A DNA stretch of 64,000 bases from Nitrososphaeria archaeon (GTDB taxonomy: Archaea; Thermoproteota; Nitrososphaeria; Geothermarchaeales; JDFR-13): contig JALWXN010000004.1 in the NCBI GenBank assembly GCA_027078545.1, positions 1,078,611 through 1,142,610 on the forward strand, in the 5' to 3' direction. The translations under genes and the position numbers were made by a program. Below are positions 22,396-29,915 of this stretch, piece by piece (position 1 is the stretch's first letter; every line of letters begins with the position of its first letter). The notes beneath the pieces were generated by a model. It had not been told where the DNA came from, did not search any database, and saw nothing but the letters and a program-made list of their open reading frames with translations.

Positions 22396-23145
22396 TTATA
22401 TCATCCTCCTTAGTAGCCTGTCTATCTCTACAAGGGCCTTCTCCGCACCCGTACCTATCCATACCGATGCGAGCTCGGTGAGCGCGGAGGGCTCTGGGTT
22501 AACCTCTACTATCCCAGCCCCCTTGGCATGGGCCTCCTCCACGAGTGATGCGGCTGGATATACCACTCCACTAGTCCCTATCACGAGGAGTGTATCTGCA
22601 CGGAGAACCTCTGTCAACGCCCGCCTCCAGACCGCCTGGTCGAGAGGCTCGCCGAACCATACAACGTCTGGGCGGAGGAGGCTATAGCAGTTCGGGCATA
22701 TTGGTGGTAGGCTCTCGAGGTCCAGGCTATCTATCTCGCCCCGGTACCAGCACCTCGTACATCTAAACCTGTGTAGGGAGCCGTGGAGCTCTATCACATC
22801 CTCTATACCTACACGTCTAAAGAGGCCGTCCACATTCTGTGTAATCACAGTCTTGACCAGGCCCCTACTCCACCAATCCCGTAGAACGTGGTAGCCTCTG
22901 TGGGGCTTAGCCCTCCTAACCTTCTCCAGCCTGGATAGGTACCACCTCCATACGAGCTCGGGGTTCCTCTGGAATCCCTGTGGAGTGGCCAGATCCTCCA
23001 GGCTATACCTGTCCCATAGGCCGGAGCCACCCCTGAAGACTGGTATACCCGAGTCGGCACTCATCCCGGCGCCTGTGAAGACGACTAGGTATCTCGACCC
23101 GGCTATATACTCAGCCGCCCTAGCTATCTCCTCCATCACCCACAA
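22396..23145 (-). CDS. cobB: Sirtuin NAD-dependent protein deacylase
   Basis: GAGMSADSGIP.FRG, TQNVDGL, ELHG, CxxC...CxxC, RPDVVWFGE, IGTSG. Confidence 0.92.
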   Translation of the reverse strand: MWVMEEIARAAEYIAGSRYLVVFTGAGMSADSGIPVFRGGSGLWDRYSLEDLATPQGFQRNPELVWRWYLSRLEKVRRAKPHRGYHVLRDWWSRGLVKTVITQNVDGLFRRVGIEDVIELHGSLHRFRCTRCWYRGEIDSLDLESLPPICPNCYSLLRPDVVWFGEPLDQAVWRRALTEVLRADTLLVIGTSGVVYPAASLVEEAHAKGAGIVEVNPEPSALTELASVWIGTGAEKALVEIDRLLRRMI

Positions 23146-23983
23146 CCTCTATAGCGTCTATGCTCTCCAGGACAGACTCCTTATCACTCCCCACCAGCAT
23201 AAACTTGTTGGCGTGGTAGAATACTAGGCTCCCCCTCTCCCTAAGCTTCTCCGCCACCTTGTCCAGGCTGATCATGTCCTGATACCTCGATAGCTTGATA
23301 ACGCTGTACTGCTCAGGGTTCCTACTACTCGGCTGGATAATAACCTGCACATCCCCCCGCCTATTCATCACCTCATAGGGAGGGACAGCCCTGTCGAGCA
23401 CCAGTATCTTCACCCCGTTAATAGTCATCTCGACGGCGTTCTCAAGCGCCTCTGCTATCTCCCTCTCCTCCTCAACCCTCTCCCTTAGATAGTTGTAGAA
23501 CCTCCTCCCCAACCACCTCAAAACCTGGTACTCCTCATCCCCAGGTGATATGTACTGGATATTTGCGAACCACCTCGTGTATACCCTCTCGAAGAAGAGT
23601 GTCTCGCTAGGTATCTCCACACCTATCGCCCTATGAAGCCCGAAACGATCCCTCACATCGATAAACCTCATCTCCGGGAGATCCAGGGCATCCACCAGCT
23701 CTGGGAAGTGGTGCTTAACGACTAGTACTAGGCTACATGGGATCTCTATGTCCTGGTGATGGTCAAGTAGGTATGGGGGCTCATACCTCCGCCCGATATC
23801 GAGGTATATAGTCTTATCCTCAAACCCCTCCACACTGATGACACGCTCCACTGGGGCGCCATACTTATATGTAAGTAGGGCTGTACCCAGTAGGTCATCC
23901 ATATGGGCATTCCCACCATGTGTAACTATCTTCCTAACCCTTAGAGACGTCTCCACACTACCCACCACGCAGCCACTACCCAT
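23120..23983 (-). CDS. MYG1-like DHH-superfamily hydrolase
   Basis: VTHGGNAHMDD, LDIG, LDHHQ, FYH motifs. Confidence 0.75.
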   Translation of the reverse strand: MGSGCVVGSVETSLRVRKIVTHGGNAHMDDLLGTALLTYKYGAPVERVISVEGFEDKTIYLDIGRRYEPPYLLDHHQDIEIPCSLVLVVKHHFPELVDALDLPEMRFIDVRDRFGLHRAIGVEIPSETLFFERVYTRWFANIQYISPGDEEYQVLRWLGRRFYNYLRERVEEEREIAEALENAVEMTINGVKILVLDRAVPPYEVMNRRGDVQVIIQPSSRNPEQYSVIKLSRYQDMISLDKVAEKLRERGSLVFYHANKFMLVGSDKESVLESIDAIEVVGDGGDS

Positions 23984-24035
23984 CTAGATAGGGCTGGGAC
24001 ACGATATATCTATCCCCAGCGATATATAGGGATAT

Positions 24036-24581
24036 ATGATTAGGATAGGCTTCGCCGCATACAGCGGCGACCCCACCCACCGGGACATCGAGAACGCCAG
24101 GCAGCTCGTCACGACTCTATACAGGGAGGTCGACTTCAACAGGGTGGCCTTCCTCCTAGGCGGGTACTGGGGCCTCATGAGGGTCTTGGTGGACGAGCTG
24201 TTACAGCACGGCGGGAGGGTGGTCCTCTTCCCCCCACTGGAGCTGGAGAAGCTCGAGTATCCCGAGGGGGCGATAGTTCTACGCCTAGGCCTCTCCATGA
24301 GGGCTAGGAGCATCCCCCTCGTGAGGAGCTCCGACGTATTCATAGTCATGGGTGGTGAGGGGGGCTCGATACTAGAGCTCGTCACCAGCTACGACGAGGG
24401 GATACCCACATACCTACTCACCGAGACGGGACACTCCACCGATAAGATGTCCTTCCTAACACCATACCTCGACAGGAGGAGGACTGTGGAGATCAAGGTC
24501 TTCAACGACCCTGTACAGCTGGCCGAGGACCTGATACAGAACCATCTACAGGGCGTCCTGAGGAGCGGGGCAACTAAGTAG
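24036..24581 (+). CDS. LOG/SLOG family protein
   Basis: GGYWGLM, RSIPLVRSSD, GGEGGSILE. Confidence 0.8.
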   Translation: MIRIGFAAYSGDPTHRDIENARQLVTTLYREVDFNRVAFLLGGYWGLMRVLVDELLQHGGRVVLFPPLELEKLEYPEGAIVLRLGLSMRARSIPLVRSSDVFIVMGGEGGSILELVTSYDEGIPTYLLTETGHSTDKMSFLTPYLDRRRTVEIKVFNDPVQLAEDLIQNHLQGVLRSGATK

Positions 24582-24613: not shown

Positions 24614-25573
24614 CTACCTACCCATCCTAATGACTAGGTATGCCACTGGGATGGCTAGGAGAATGATTATCAGGTAGGTCAGCGGAGTATTGACCAATCC
24701 ATCCATCCCCTCCACACCAGTATCAGTACCAACAGCCTCTTCTGTGACCCTCTGGGCTGTGGTGTCCCCCGAGGATTCGGGCGAGGCTTCAGGAGACATC
24801 TCCTTATTGGATATCCACTCCTCATATGGCGAGAGAGGGAGCGGCTCGATCTCTGACTTATTAAAGGCTATGACTAGTGGATAGTCCCCAGGTATCGCCT
24901 CCCTCACATATGCAGCGAAGGCCTTGATATCCTCCATGCTCGGCTGTATATCACCCTGTATAACTATGAGGAGGGTCATCTCCAGCCCGATCCTTATAGA
25001 TGCGTGGAGACCCAGGAAGGTATCGATCTTACCATACCTTGAGAAGATCTCGACCGCCATATCATCTATCCTTTCTATAACGCTATCCTCACCAGGCTGA
25101 GTAGGGCTGAGCACATCCCTTAGATACTCCACAGTCGACATGCTACCAAGCGTCGCATATACCTCCACCCTCTCAACACACCGGGGCAGGCTACTCACAA
25201 CCCGGCCCACCAGATCCTTCTCCAGCCCACCCCATACCACGGAGATCTCCAGCACTCCAGAGCCGTTATTAAAGCTGACTTTCACCGTCCAGGGGAGGCT
25301 ATCTAATATATGCCCCTCGATATCCTCTGGGCTACAGGGACTATCCTCGCCTCCAACCCTAGGAACCATGTATTCATCGGTCAGGCTATAGATATTCTCG
25401 CGGCCAAAGAGGATGTAGACATCACCATCAACATATGTATAGACGTCATAGTCTACAGGCTCATAGATCCTGATAATAACCATATCCTCCTGGGCCCCTA
25501 CAACCTGTGTAGACCACCCGGGGGAGATGAGGAGGAGAGCCATCGATATGAGAAGGAGGAGTAGACTCCTCAT
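24614..25573 (-). CDS. Hypothetical surface protein (signal peptide, C-terminal TM anchor)
   Basis: Hydrophobic N-terminus, S/T/E-rich linker, C-terminal TM helix with basic tail. Confidence 0.6.
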   Translation of the reverse strand: MRSLLLLLISMALLLISPGWSTQVVGAQEDMVIIRIYEPVDYDVYTYVDGDVYILFGRENIYSLTDEYMVPRVGGEDSPCSPEDIEGHILDSLPWTVKVSFNNGSGVLEISVVWGGLEKDLVGRVVSSLPRCVERVEVYATLGSMSTVEYLRDVLSPTQPGEDSVIERIDDMAVEIFSRYGKIDTFLGLHASIRIGLEMTLLIVIQGDIQPSMEDIKAFAAYVREAIPGDYPLVIAFNKSEIEPLPLSPYEEWISNKEMSPEASPESSGDTTAQRVTEEAVGTDTGVEGMDGLVNTPLTYLIIILLAIPVAYLVIRMGR

Positions 25574-25768: not shown

Positions 25769-26662
25769 CTATTTAAATACTGTCCCCGTCTCCATCGCCC
25801 ATAGTAGGAGGTCGAGCTCTGCTGGGAGCATCCCCAGGTATCTAGCCAGCCATCGGAACCGGGTCTCCAGCTCGATATACCTCCTCCTCGATAGGCTCTT
25901 GGGGTAGCTGTTTATCAGCCTGAGCCGGGCCATCCACCTAAGGATATGCCTGTCTAGTATTGCTAGGTGTAGACCCCTCCCTATGTTCCGGAGGAAGTGG
26001 CTAGCCTCCTTATATCCGAGGCCCTTCACACCCCTGACGAGCATCTCCCTAGCCTCTAGGGGGTCTTCTATGCTGAGTATCTCACCTAGATATCCCTCCA
26101 TGTATAGCCTCCTAGCCCCCACTATGTATTGGGACTTCTTCCTCCAGAATCTACATCCCCTGATCACCCTGCCTATGTCTCCCGGCCCACCGCTGTATAG
26201 TGTTCCTGAGAGGTGGAGCTCCTTCACCTTCTCCCAGCACCTTATGGCGGGGCTCATAGGGGTGAGTAGGCAGAAGACCAGCTCGAGGAATATCCTCTCA
26301 TCCCCACACCTACCCACCTCCCTGAAGCTCTTGATGGCCCTCTCTATATCGCCTCTATACCTCTGATAAGCGTCCCAGACAGCCTCTAGGGAGCCGCCTG
26401 AGACGTAGGTGAAGAGCTTCACCTTGGAGCCGGGCTCCACCACCGTGTCTAGGCCGCTGTCCAGCATCACGTTCCTACCATCGACCAGTATCCCGTAGCC
26501 AACACCCTCCCTCTCCAGCTCCTCCATAAGCCTCTTGAGCCCGGGTATGGATGAGATTATCGTTGATAGGGGCTCCGCATCCTCTATCTCCAGCCTTATA
26601 TAGTCCCTCCCAAGCCTAGTCCTGAAGACGCCGTATAGTAGGATCTCCACCTCCCGGGGCAT
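25769..26662 (-). CDS. ogg: Fusion of ubiquitin-like MoaD/SAMP domain (aa 1-90, ending VSGG) and Ogg2 8-oxoguanine DNA glycosylase/AP lyase
   Basis: LYGVFR...ILVDGRNV...GLDT.V..G..V.LF..VSGG, then ELVFCLLT, RF, GLGYKEASHFLRN, AILDRH and C-terminal K; no stop codon at the junction. Confidence 0.88.
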   Translation of the reverse strand: MPREVEILLYGVFRTRLGRDYIRLEIEDAEPLSTIISSIPGLKRLMEELEREGVGYGILVDGRNVMLDSGLDTVVEPGSKVKLFTYVSGGSLEAVWDAYQRYRGDIERAIKSFREVGRCGDERIFLELVFCLLTPMSPAIRCWEKVKELHLSGTLYSGGPGDIGRVIRGCRFWRKKSQYIVGARRLYMEGYLGEILSIEDPLEAREMLVRGVKGLGYKEASHFLRNIGRGLHLAILDRHILRWMARLRLINSYPKSLSRRRYIELETRFRWLARYLGMLPAELDLLLWAMETGTVFK

Positions 26663-26698: not shown

Positions 26699-28690
26699 CT
26701 ACTCCCCCTTGAACCTCGGCTTCCTCTTCTCCAGGAAGGCCGATACACCCTCTATGAAGTCCTCCGTGGAGAAGGTTAGGCCGAAGAAGCCGGACTCTAT
26801 CGCCTCTCCATGCCATAGATCCGTCTCTAGGCCTAGCTGTATCGAGTATTTAGCCGCTAGGAGCGCGAGTGGAGGCTTCTCAGCTAGTTTGAGGGCGAAG
26901 CTACGGGTATATTCCTCGAGCCTCTCAGGTGGGACCACCTTGTCAACCATCCCCATCTCAAGCGCCTCGTAGGCGTTGTACATATCGCCTGTATAGATCA
27001 CCTCCTTAGCCTTTGACGGCCCTATCAGCCTAGCAAGCCTCTGCGTACCCGCGGCCCCAGGGATTATCCCAAGGTTTATCTCCGGCTGCCCCACAACGGC
27101 TAGTTCACTGGCTATGCGGAAGTCACCAGCCAGGGCCAGCTCCATACCTCCGCCCAGGGCGAAGCCATTTATCATGATTATGACAGGCTTCGTGAAGTAC
27201 TCTATCTTGTTTGTCAGCTCCTGGAAACGCCTTGAGAATATTGCGGCCTTGAAGGGTGTGACACCGACGAAGCTATTGACATCTGCACCGGCGCTGAAGG
27301 CCCTACCCATACCTGTCAGTATCACCACCCTGATATCATCCATCTCCTCGATCCTGTTCAGAGCCTTGGAGAGCTCCTCTAGTAGCTTTGGCGAGAGTGC
27401 GTTGAGCTTGTCCGGCCTATTCAGTATTATCCATGCTAGGGGCTTCTCAAACCTTATTATCAGGGTGTCCATCCGCTCCTCCTCATAGCTTGGATACTTG
27501 TAGAAGCCCTCGCCACTCCTAACGCCTAGGAGGCCCTTACCAACCATCTCCCTCAGAAGCTGATCAGGCTCGAACATCTTCAGGCCTGAGGCGCTGTACA
27601 TATGCTCCAACGCCTTCACCACATTGTCGAGGCCATACTCGTCGCCATACCTCAGTATACCCTTGGGGTAGCCCAGGCCTAGGACCGTGGCCTTATCAAT
27701 ATCATATTTAGACGCGATCCCCTCCCTAACCAGGTATGCAGCCTCGTTCACAGCTGGGGCTATAAGCATCACCGGGTTCAGATCCTCAGCCGCGTCCCTA
27801 GGTATCTCAGGCTTCACATACTTCCCAGGAGATGGGTACTGGTAGAAGCCCTCCCCACTCTTGACGCCATACTTACCCTCCCTATACTTCTCCTCGAAGA
27901 GTCCGCAGCTATATACCTCGGTACCCCTCTCGATCATCGCCTTAGCGACGAGGTAGAAGACGTCTATACCGCTATAGTCGGCCAGCTCGAAGACCCCCAT
28001 CGGGAAGCCAAGCTTATACCTAGCCACGGCGTCGACAGCCTCTATAGAGGCGTTCCCACTCTCAACTAGCCAGCAGGAAGCCGCCATGAGCTTGAGCAGG
28101 ATCCTGTTGACTATGAAGCCTGGGACATCCCTCTTAACAAGGACCGTCTGCTTACCAAACCTCTTCGCTAGGTCCTCGGTGATCTTGACGGTTAGGCTAC
28201 TCGTCTTCTCCCCCCGTATCACCTCGACCAGCGGCATCAATGGGGGTGGGTTGAAGAAGTGCATACCAACAACCTTCTCAGGCCTCTTGGTAGCCTCTGC
28301 AATCTCGCTTATAGGGAGGCTACTCGTATTGGTAGCCAGGACAGCGTGCCCAGGGGCTAGCTCATCAACCTTAGAGAACACCTCCCGCTTAAGCTCGATC
28401 TTCTCAGGTATAGCCTCTATGACGAAGTCGGCATCCCCCACCGCCTCGGCAAGATCCAGCGTTGGGTGTATCCTAGCCATGATAGTATCAACATCCTCCC
28501 TCAACATCCTCTTAGAGACCAGCTTCTCAACACTCCACCTTATCCTCCCCAGAGCATTGTCGAGGAACTCCTGCTTAATATCGTATAGATAGACCTGGTA
28601 CCCCGAGTACGCAGCCACCTCCGCAATCCCATGGCCCATCGTACCCGCTCCGAGGACGGCTATAACCCTTATGTCATCCACGGCCCCCAT
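26699..28690 (-). CDS. 3-hydroxyacyl-CoA dehydrogenase/enoyl-CoA hydratase fusion
   Basis: GAGTMGHG, NTSS, HFFNP, GFIVNR; C-terminal crotonase (FSAGAD, GGGMEL, PEINLG). Confidence 0.93.
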   Translation of the reverse strand: MGAVDDIRVIAVLGAGTMGHGIAEVAAYSGYQVYLYDIKQEFLDNALGRIRWSVEKLVSKRMLREDVDTIMARIHPTLDLAEAVGDADFVIEAIPEKIELKREVFSKVDELAPGHAVLATNTSSLPISEIAEATKRPEKVVGMHFFNPPPLMPLVEVIRGEKTSSLTVKITEDLAKRFGKQTVLVKRDVPGFIVNRILLKLMAASCWLVESGNASIEAVDAVARYKLGFPMGVFELADYSGIDVFYLVAKAMIERGTEVYSCGLFEEKYREGKYGVKSGEGFYQYPSPGKYVKPEIPRDAAEDLNPVMLIAPAVNEAAYLVREGIASKYDIDKATVLGLGYPKGILRYGDEYGLDNVVKALEHMYSASGLKMFEPDQLLREMVGKGLLGVRSGEGFYKYPSYEEERMDTLIIRFEKPLAWIILNRPDKLNALSPKLLEELSKALNRIEEMDDIRVVILTGMGRAFSAGADVNSFVGVTPFKAAIFSRRFQELTNKIEYFTKPVIIMINGFALGGGMELALAGDFRIASELAVVGQPEINLGIIPGAAGTQRLARLIGPSKAKEVIYTGDMYNAYEALEMGMVDKVVPPERLEEYTRSFALKLAEKPPLALLAAKYSIQLGLETDLWHGEAIESGFFGLTFSTEDFIEGVSAFLEKRKPRFKGE

Positions 28691-28700
28691 CTCTACCACC

Positions 28701-29915
28701 CTATAGGCTGAGGACATCTATCCCAAAGCTCTTCTTCAGGAGCTGCCTGATCGTCGTGAGCCTCTGGATATCGTTGGTACCCTCGTAGATCGTGGTGATT
28801 ATAGAGTCCCTCAGGAAGTGCTCCACACCGGTCTCCTTATCAACCCCTACGCCTCCATGGACCTTTATAGCCAGGGCGGAGACCTTCTCAGCCACCTCAG
28901 TGGCATATGTCTTCGCCATCGAGGCGGCGAATACATACTCCTCCCTACCCTGGTCAGCAAGGTTGGCGGCCCAGTATGTGAGGAGCCTAGCCGTCTGGAT
29001 CATGGTAAGCATATCCGCCAGCTTGAAGCTGACTGCCTGGAAGGATATTATCTGTCTCCCGAAGGCCTGCCTCTGAAGACTATAGTTGAAGGCCTTCTCA
29101 AACGCCCCCTGGGCTATACCCACAGCCTGGGCAGCTATACCAACCCTGCTATGGTCATAAGTGGCTAGGAGCATCTTGAAGCCCTCGTTCTCAGGCGGTA
29201 TCAGGTTCTCCTCAGGCACCTCCACATTGTCCAGTATAACCTCGCTGGGATGCTCACCATCGAGGCCCATGACGTCGAACCTACTACCCACCTCCACACC
29301 CGGCCAGTCACGCTCCACGATGAAGAGCGAGATACCCCACCACCTCTTCCTACGCTCCTCAGGCGGCGGGCTTGTCCTAGCCGACACTACGAAGTAGTCC
29401 GCCTTATCCGCACCAGTGATGAAGATCTTCCTACCGTTGATGATGTACTTATCACCCTCCTTACGGGCCGTCGTCTGGATACCGGCCACGTCGCTACCCG
29501 CTGCTGGCTCGGTATTGGCGTGGGCAGCGAACTTCTCACCCCTAGCCACAGGCGGGATATACTTCTTTTTCTGCTCCTCAGTGCCGAAGGTCATCACTGG
29601 GTATGTGAAGAGACCGTTTACGAGGAGGCCTGTACCGAAGGCTGGGAGGACCCTGGAGATCTCCTCCATCAGTATAACGAGGTACATCGAGCCTCCTCCC
29701 TGGCCACCCAGCTCCTCCGGGATCCCTATGCCTGTGAAGCCCATCTCGACAGCCTTCCTATACAGCTCCTCGGGTATGACGCCCTCCTTAACCACCTTAA
29801 CAGCTATCGGCTCTATCTCACGCTCGACGAACTCCCTGACACTAGCCCTGAAAATCTCCAGCTCGTCATCGATCTCGATGGAGTAGTCCTTGACACTGGT
29901 GAAGGGGAACACCAT
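28701..29915 (-). CDS. Acyl-CoA dehydrogenase
   Basis: TEPAAGSD, NGRKIFIT, RQAFG, HGGVG, IYEGTNDIQR; start taken at MVFPF. Confidence 0.93.
   Translation of the reverse strand: MVFPFTSVKDYSIEIDDELEIFRASVREFVEREIEPIAVKVVKEGVIPEELYRKAVEMGFTGIGIPEELGGQGGGSMYLVILMEEISRVLPAFGTGLLVNGLFTYPVMTFGTEEQKKKYIPPVARGEKFAAHANTEPAAGSDVAGIQTTARKEGDKYIINGRKIFITGADKADYFVVSARTSPPPEERRKRWWGISLFIVERDWPGVEVGSRFDVMGLDGEHPSEVILDNVEVPEENLIPPENEGFKMLLATYDHSRVGIAAQAVGIAQGAFEKAFNYSLQRQAFGRQIISFQAVSFKLADMLTMIQTARLLTYWAANLADQGREEYVFAASMAKTYATEVAEKVSALAIKVHGGVGVDKETGVEHFLRDSIITTIYEGTNDIQRLTTIRQLLKKSFGIDVLSL

Follow-up and report, generated by a model that had tools for sequence, protein, structure and literature searches.

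The 64,000-nucleotide stretch analysed here (the window; positions are counted from its first letter) carries, on its reverse strand, a gene in which an apparent ubiquitin-like (Ubl) domain is joined, through an internal Gly-Gly, to an 8-oxoguanine DNA glycosylase/AP lyase of the Ogg2 family (Table 1). According to an earlier, sequence-only reading, one frame runs through the Gly-Gly into the Ogg domain, and the start of the Ogg half is free of Met. Both statements are borne out: the frame is open over 297 amino acids and includes the two Gly codons (26398-26393), and M136 is the first Met that follows the Gly-Gly. The in-frame alternative starts nearest to the junction are GTG codons at V81 and V116, the former being GTT in a sister genome. 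No start near the junction is conserved, and we therefore rejected the idea that Ogg is translated on its own from within the gene.

Table 1. Features of the Ubl-Ogg2 locus in window coordinates
Feature	Position	Strand	Basis
Ubl-Ogg2 fusion gene, complete	25769..26662	-	Single open frame, 297 aa; homologs along full length
MoaD/SAMP-type beta-grasp (Ubl) domain, putative, residues 1-90	26393..26662	-	Profiles, structure model and alignments; dN/dS 0.27-0.30 when fused
Gly89-Gly90, internal; predicted JAMM cut site after Gly90	26393..26398	-	S88-G89-G90 invariance, 11 fused sequences
Ogg2-family 8-oxoguanine DNA glycosylase/AP lyase domain, residues 91-297	25769..26392	-	PF22175, PRK01229, Foldseek
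Catalytic Lys218, HhH motif	26009..26011	-	Alignment: Gln in DNA-complex structure 3knt, Lys in 3fhf; invariant among homologs
Catalytic Asp237	25952..25954	-	Invariant in 13 sequences; aligned to MjOgg
C-terminal Lys297, Ogg2-typical	25772..25774	-	Alignment; Arg in one homolog (P0005)
3-hydroxyacyl-CoA dehydrogenase/enoyl-CoA hydratase, context gene	26699..28717	-	Last gene of beta-oxidation run

Contigs from four other sequencing runs (two studies) span the junction with zero indels, and one of these contigs carries a synonymous change in the Gly90 codon. A 95% identical copy is present in a Ca. Geothermarchaeota archaeon; the runs named in this comparison are hydrothermal vent metagenomes. 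All source material is metagenomic, and a stop codon could, in principle, have been lost by an assembly or sequencing error in a single MAG; this explanation is refuted to the point of being negligible by six near-identical full-length proteins from separate assemblies (all in one 90% cluster), the four bridging runs and five further divergent fused lineages. The fusion is thus confirmed as real, in one genus of Ca. Geothermarchaeota.

The Ogg half matches PF22175 with 161.5 bits (Pfam cut-off, 27; E 2e-47) and the NCBIfam N-glycosylase/DNA lyase model PRK01229 with 190.1 bits (cut-off, 183). Foldseek aligns it to 3knt with a target TM of 0.90, and the solved Ogg2 structures show about 35-37% identity and rmsd of 2.0-2.7 A. 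The catalytic Lys, the Asp and the C-terminal Lys, previously reported as retained, indeed align to those of Methanocaldococcus jannaschii MjOgg (K218, D237 and K297). By profile and catalytic residues, the domain appears to be an intact Ogg2-family glycosylase/AP lyase, with the fold, catalytic Lys/Asp and C-terminal Lys common to MjOgg (3fhf/3knt), T. maritima Tm1821 (3n0u) and S. solfataricus SsOgg (3fhg). Unlike these proteins, the fusion carries an additional N-terminal Ubl, and the Ogg proteins of the genus form a single clade (100/100), apart from those of the other genera of the order. A search for AGOG produced no match, and neither did the controls of that search.

The N-terminal domain (residues ~1-90) scores 21.6 bits against the Pfam ThiS model, or 24.4 bits in the genome search, with a cut-off of 22.5; the moaD_arch and SAMP1 models reach E~2e-4, far under their cut-offs. 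In the AlphaFold model of the fusion (mean pLDDT, 88.6, with ~76-94 across residues 1-80; pTM 0.67), the domain shows the beta-grasp order of elements and matches solved SAMP and MoaD structures with E of 1e-3 to 8e-3 (2m19, 2l52, 3po0 and 1vjk), namely, H. volcanii SAMP1 and HVO_2177, M. acetivorans SAMP1 and P. furiosus MoaD. By sequence, the Ubl half is closest in the PDB to 1v8c, a MoaD-related protein of T. thermophilus (E 1e-6). The closest stand-alone relatives consist of 88-90 residues and end in AGG or GGG, and a feature search of the Atlas gave ThiS clusters only (0.76-0.77), which is a lead only. The profile scores are thus close to or under the cut-offs, but the model and the terminal Gly-Gly point to a divergent Ubl of the MoaD/SAMP type. 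Of the originally proposed MoaD/SAMP/Urm1 assignment, the likeness to MoaD and SAMP1/3 holds, and that to Urm1 does not, with no Urm1 model matched. In the model, the last Ubl strand ends at residue 85 and the first Ogg helix begins at 92; the tail between them is unstructured, with lower pLDDT.

This tail is strongly conserved. S88-G89-G90 is invariant in 11 fused sequences and in all Gly-Gly-bearing copies, with Ubl identity of 31-56% across the five fused lineages that carry SGG and 29-66% between lineages when all Gly-Gly-bearing copies are included; the third positions of both Gly codons vary among homologs. In the clade that comprises this protein, P0003 and P0004, the last seven Ubl residues are invariant (compared with 33% invariance elsewhere), and the residues after the Gly-Gly differ; the rough chance of such invariance for the exposed VSGG alone is 0.012. 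This is the pattern expected of a cut site that matters on the Ubl side. The Ubl is under purifying selection, fused (dN/dS 0.27 and 0.30) as well as split (0.23), although weaker than that on Ogg (0.07-0.16; paired Ubl and Ogg values, 0.27 vs 0.07 and 0.30 vs 0.16). In the only fusion that lacks the Gly-Gly (P0010, a single case), the Ubl is decayed, with 20-27% identity, one deletion and a very long branch. The encoded Gly-Gly is free in no ortholog seen, fused or split, so that this Ubl paralog would always need trimming if it is activated. A 128-aa protein (P0135), in which this Ubl, with an internal deletion, is joined via Gly-Gly to the start of Ogg and then to unrelated sequence, probably represents one more fused lineage, in a misassembled or broken form.

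In two full-length protein searches (the best 120 matches listed from the top 8000 candidates scored), six clusters among the matches listed are fused, and nothing else contains both halves. Outside the genus, no Ubl-Ogg fusion is found among the matches listed in the full-length, Ubl-region and representative searches, the latter two adding one fragment, and metagenome contigs queried with the N-terminal 130 residues gave no match. Within the genus, the locus occurs in several states. Five divergent fused lineages keep the SGG (the cluster of this protein, P0003, P0004, P0005/P0128 and P0006; their junctions come in four lengths), and one (P0010) has lost it. Two lineages are split. In the first, P0007-P0009, the Ubl ends in Gly-Gly-Ile-stop, one base ahead of a TTG-started ogg; in the second (L145, a 652-base contig), it ends in Gly-Gly plus seven residues and overlaps an ATG-started ogg. 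In P0011 and P0013, Ogg stands alone. Where the flanks suffice, the position is constant, downstream of a beta-oxidation run that ends in the hydroxyacyl-CoA dehydrogenase/hydratase gene. By contrast, the Ubl profile finds no Ubl in the available flanks of 86 other Ogg loci (79 unrelated and 7 from the other genera of the order). Neither a stop codon or indel after the Gly-Gly, nor separate genes in all relatives, nor general loss of the Gly-Gly is seen, yet split, Ogg-only and, in one case, Gly-Gly-less fused forms do occur among the relatives. The pairing thus appears to be labile and confined to one genus.

The fused/split junction has certainly switched state several times. In the dehydrogenase tree, this genome, G002, P0003 and P0004, all fused, form a clade (100/99); the split forms have the fused P0128/G001 as their sister group (99/97), the junction lengths differing by one base. 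Counted by hand on the trees, a fused ancestor requires about 4 changes and a split ancestor about 6. The L145 junction resembles GG-stop-T-ATG minus the stop, and TTG starts are common to split genes and genes for Ogg alone, so that stops lost repeatedly would explain the junction sequences equally well; the Ubl tree is uninformative on the direction of change, that is, on whether the ancestor was fused or split.

Several features of the surroundings deserve mention in their own right. Downstream of the fusion, in this genome (G000) and in G002 only, a gene for a 319-aa protein is inserted (window 24614-25573, reverse strand); it has no Pfam or NCBIfam match, and its hydrophobic termini and Ser/Thr/Glu-rich stretch make it look like a secreted, membrane-anchored protein. 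A SLOG cluster-4 gene, a MYG1-type exonuclease and Sir2 (window 22396-24581) form a conserved block downstream of ogg at most loci of the genus. On contig C75 of G013, a genome of another genus, a dehydrogenase and an Ogg (L013/L130) near-identical to the P0013 lineage are found beside the genome's own copies, probably, as a result of bin contamination.

The sequence-only reading had raised the possibility that a JAMM protease cuts the fusion and had called for a search for JAMM and UbaA genes. Both are present: the genome contains a full-length UbaA/ThiF E1 gene and, in the C4:427292 region, a single JAMM1 with the Glu, HxH, Ser and Asp residues, metal ligands included, intact (E 1e-22 to PfJAMM1). 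The JAMM1 loop after HxH is one residue shorter than that of PfJAMM1, a trait common across the family. A search for JAMM gave matches in each of the 5 genus genomes and in 14 of the 17 in the order. An E2 search of the genome gave no match, its controls likewise remaining without a match.

Six Ubl domains are encoded in this genome, and the Gly-Gly is masked in three of these: the fusion, the MoaD beside moaE and ThiS-NcsA/TtuA. The MoaD gene upstream of moaE (L035, G000 C4:646122-646358, forward strand) has lost the stop codon after the Gly-Gly and so carries a 15-residue tail; the G002 MoaD (L162) has an unrelated 21-residue tail, and those of G001 and G003 end in Gly-Gly-stop. ThiS is fused in frame, through its Gly-Gly, to the tRNA thiolase NcsA/TtuA (L039, G000 C4:637119-637277, reverse strand; L173 in G002), whereas in G001 and G003, ThiS and NcsA/TtuA are separate genes and the Gly-Gly of ThiS is free. 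Thus, this lineage apparently tolerates stop loss after Gly-Gly even on sulfur carriers, as expected if JAMM1 trims them. Two SAMPs linked to aldehyde oxidoreductase (AOR) with a free Gly-Gly are also present, so that processing of the masked MoaD and ThiS is not strictly required. A free-Gly-Gly SAMP that converges on an aldehyde oxidoreductase gene is directly preceded by a conserved beta-grasp protein that has a hydrophobic tail in place of Gly-Gly (L038, G000 C4:449790-450014, forward strand; also in G002 and G003). Elsewhere, in another genus of the family (G007), a Ubl is fused via an internal Gly-Gly to what, by eye, is a MoaC-like part (L017:1498-2211), and a Ubl that precedes a radical-SAM-like gene has a 6-residue tail after the Gly-Gly in G005 (L016:1510-1803) but a free Gly-Gly in its ortholog from G011 (L018:1507-1782).

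On balance, we favor, as probable, the reading of the gene product as a linear precursor that JAMM1 cuts into a free Ubl and an ordinary Ogg; the support is indirect and comes from the conserved Gly-Gly tail, the presence of JAMM1 and UbaA and the two other masked Ubls. Under this scenario, the single JAMM1 zinc protease of the genome would cut the translated precursor after Gly90, releasing a MoaD/SAMP-type Ubl with a free Gly-Gly that UbaA may adenylate and that would serve as a protein modifier or sulfur carrier; the other product would be an ordinary Ogg2 beginning at its first helix. Since MoaD, ThiS and the two AOR-linked paralogs seem sufficient for the known tasks in sulfur relay, protein modification is our preferred guess for the role of the freed Ubl. 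The Ubl and ogg genes would have become neighbours in the ancestor of the genus, and the junction would later have been fused, split or stripped of the Ubl. We propose that it switched states because JAMM1 makes the sequence after the Gly-Gly nearly irrelevant.

Cleavage of this kind has precedents. HvJAMM1 cuts a linear SAMP1-MoaE fusion exactly after the Gly, in vitro and in vivo (PMC4443979), and DrJAMM cuts the natural MoaD-MoaE (PMC8832034). The Gly-Gly was needed for the in vivo detection of HvJAMM1 cleavage of linear fusions (PMC4443979); an opposing statement, that it is not required for cleavage by HvJAMM1, is attributed to Hepowit 2012 in PMC8832034. A complex prediction for JAMM1 and residues 1-120 scored 0.58, compared with 0.00 for the best control (contact agreement, 82% or more; partner pLDDT, 76 or more). 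Of 78 solved pairs, 51 came up to the mark used, as did 2 of 108 mismatches; those that did so with 0.60 or less comprise only 5 solved pairs but every one of the 4 passing mismatches. The prediction lends weak support to cleavage, and it may simply reflect a like complex, 5lda, that has already been solved. The Ubl tail here is TYVSGG instead of PPVSGG, which may matter for JAMM specificity, and in the clade of this protein, P0003 and P0004, the Ogg helix 1-2 residues past the Gly-Gly might hinder the protease. Retention of the Gly-Gly in recently fused lineages could also be a relic.

The main competing explanation is that the fusion stays whole, the Ubl being harmless or mildly stabilizing and the Gly-Gly a flexible linker or a relic. 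Such an uncut passenger would be in line with the two lineages in which Ogg stands without a Ubl at the same locus, with the loss of the Gly-Gly in one fusion, with the 2-4 times faster evolution of the Ubl compared to Ogg (by dN/dS) and with the tight junction in the model. It is harder to reconcile with a Ubl that keeps its Gly-Gly under purifying selection even when separate from Ogg, with the seven invariant tail residues next to variable ones and with the decay of the Gly-Gly-less copy; hence, we consider it unlikely, if the most serious of the alternatives.

Less probable still is an encoded degradation tag, whereby a Ubl not removed by JAMM1 would send Ogg to the proteasome or Cdc48, and the activity of the protease would set the amount of the glycosylase. 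In vitro, GFP with Urm1 fused to its N-terminus is directed to the 20S proteasome and PAN of S. acidocaldarius (PMC4569737), and the genome encodes 20S subunits and two Cdc48 genes. However, split and Ogg-only states exist at the same locus in close relatives, so that a stable Ubl-Ogg linkage is not what we find, and Ogg does not seem to need the tag; no Ubl lies in the available flanks of the 86 Ogg loci from elsewhere, whether unrelated or in the other genera of the order. Besides, the same stop loss in MoaD and ThiS points to general tolerance, and in H. volcanii, SAMP2 escapes co-degradation and is recycled (PMC4895103). The related suggestion of the sequence-only reading, a genetically encoded 'pre-sampylated' glycosylase, is weakened by the split and Ogg-only relatives and the Gly-Gly-less fusion. 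Indeed, we put at similarly long odds a natural 'pre-sampylated' repair enzyme for which JAMM1 cleavage, supplying a dedicated SAMP paralog, competes with Ubl-directed removal by the proteasome or Cdc48. If true, one protease would set Ogg levels and gate the precursors of MoaD and ThiS-NcsA, and oxidative DNA repair would be coupled with sulfur relay; the lability of the pairing and its restriction to one genus weaken both this option and a special link to DNA repair.

We find it quite improbable that the Ubl stays on, or rebinds, Ogg as a functional module that either brings it to a repair or nuclease complex able to bind Ubl or controls how active it is. Within one clade, the fusion is old, and a SAMP1- and Cdc48a-associated RecJ3/4-aRNase J complex of H. 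volcanii is reported to act in DNA-damage survival (PMC10470531). The existence of split and Ogg-only forms counts here too, and the pTM of the model, with high local pLDDT and a low-confidence linker, fits no fixed packing. Furthermore, the Gly-Gly would be unnecessary for such a role, yet its loss coincides with decay. Altogether, an accidental joining of genes that is tolerated seems to describe the pairing better than a new form of DNA-repair control, and on present evidence no new system of this kind is revealed.

Eukaryotic ubiquitin is made as fusions to ribosomal proteins and is freed by a protease that cuts after the Gly-Gly. A ubiquitin precursor of Caldiarchaeum is reported to be processed by CsRpn11 (PMC6043591). 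In both cases, the modifier is made as a precursor, as proposed for the Ubl-Ogg fusion, the Ubl of which, however, is of the MoaD/SAMP type rather than ubiquitin. The closest parallels are the linear Ubl-MoaE fusions, that is, the engineered H. volcanii SAMP1-MoaE (PMC4443979) and D. radiodurans DR2607 (PMC8832034), which share with the present case an N-terminal MoaD/SAMP beta-grasp, an internal VSGG-type tail, an in-frame enzyme partner and a JAMM in the genome; M. tuberculosis MoaX is a further fusion of this kind (PMC4326299, as cited in PMC8832034). Unlike in Ubl-MoaE and MoaX, the Ubl here is joined to Ogg2 and not to its own catalytic partner; the two halves have no evident pathway in common, and cleavage is a prediction. 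Ubl-MoaE, Ubl-Cgi121 and Ubl-E1 are among the catalogued archaeal Ubl fusions (Makarova and Koonin 2010, PMC2948915), and, as in those and in 1v8c, a lineage-restricted Ubl is found here on an unrelated information-processing protein; in contrast to that catalogue, the main text of which does not mention a glycosylase, the Ubl-Ogg fusion is labile within one genus. We found no published Ubl-glycosylase fusion in literature that included few subscription papers, and the main texts of two urmylation papers make no mention of a glycosylase. The claim of an undescribed architecture therefore stands for the exact domain combination, whereas the mechanism is already familiar from MoaD-MoaE fusions.

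If the precursor reading is correct, natural linear archaeal Ubl precursors would extend from sulfur-relay partners to an unrelated housekeeping enzyme, in the same layout as eukaryotic ubiquitin-ribosomal fusions. With a locus that is fused, split, tailed, Gly-Gly-less or Ubl-less depending on the lineage, and with a genome in which three Ubls are masked, the genus offers a natural test of whether JAMM allows stops after Gly-Gly to be lost cheaply, a possible route to polyprotein-encoded modifiers. The question of whether a SAMP at the N-terminus is a degron could also be put to this fusion, which occurs in nature and is not an engineered substrate.

The search matches also include other fusions of Ogg2, namely, with PF01986 (DUF123; ~340 aa; several clusters, P0040, P0171 and P0210) and, in one 351-aa protein (P0032), with PF13596.
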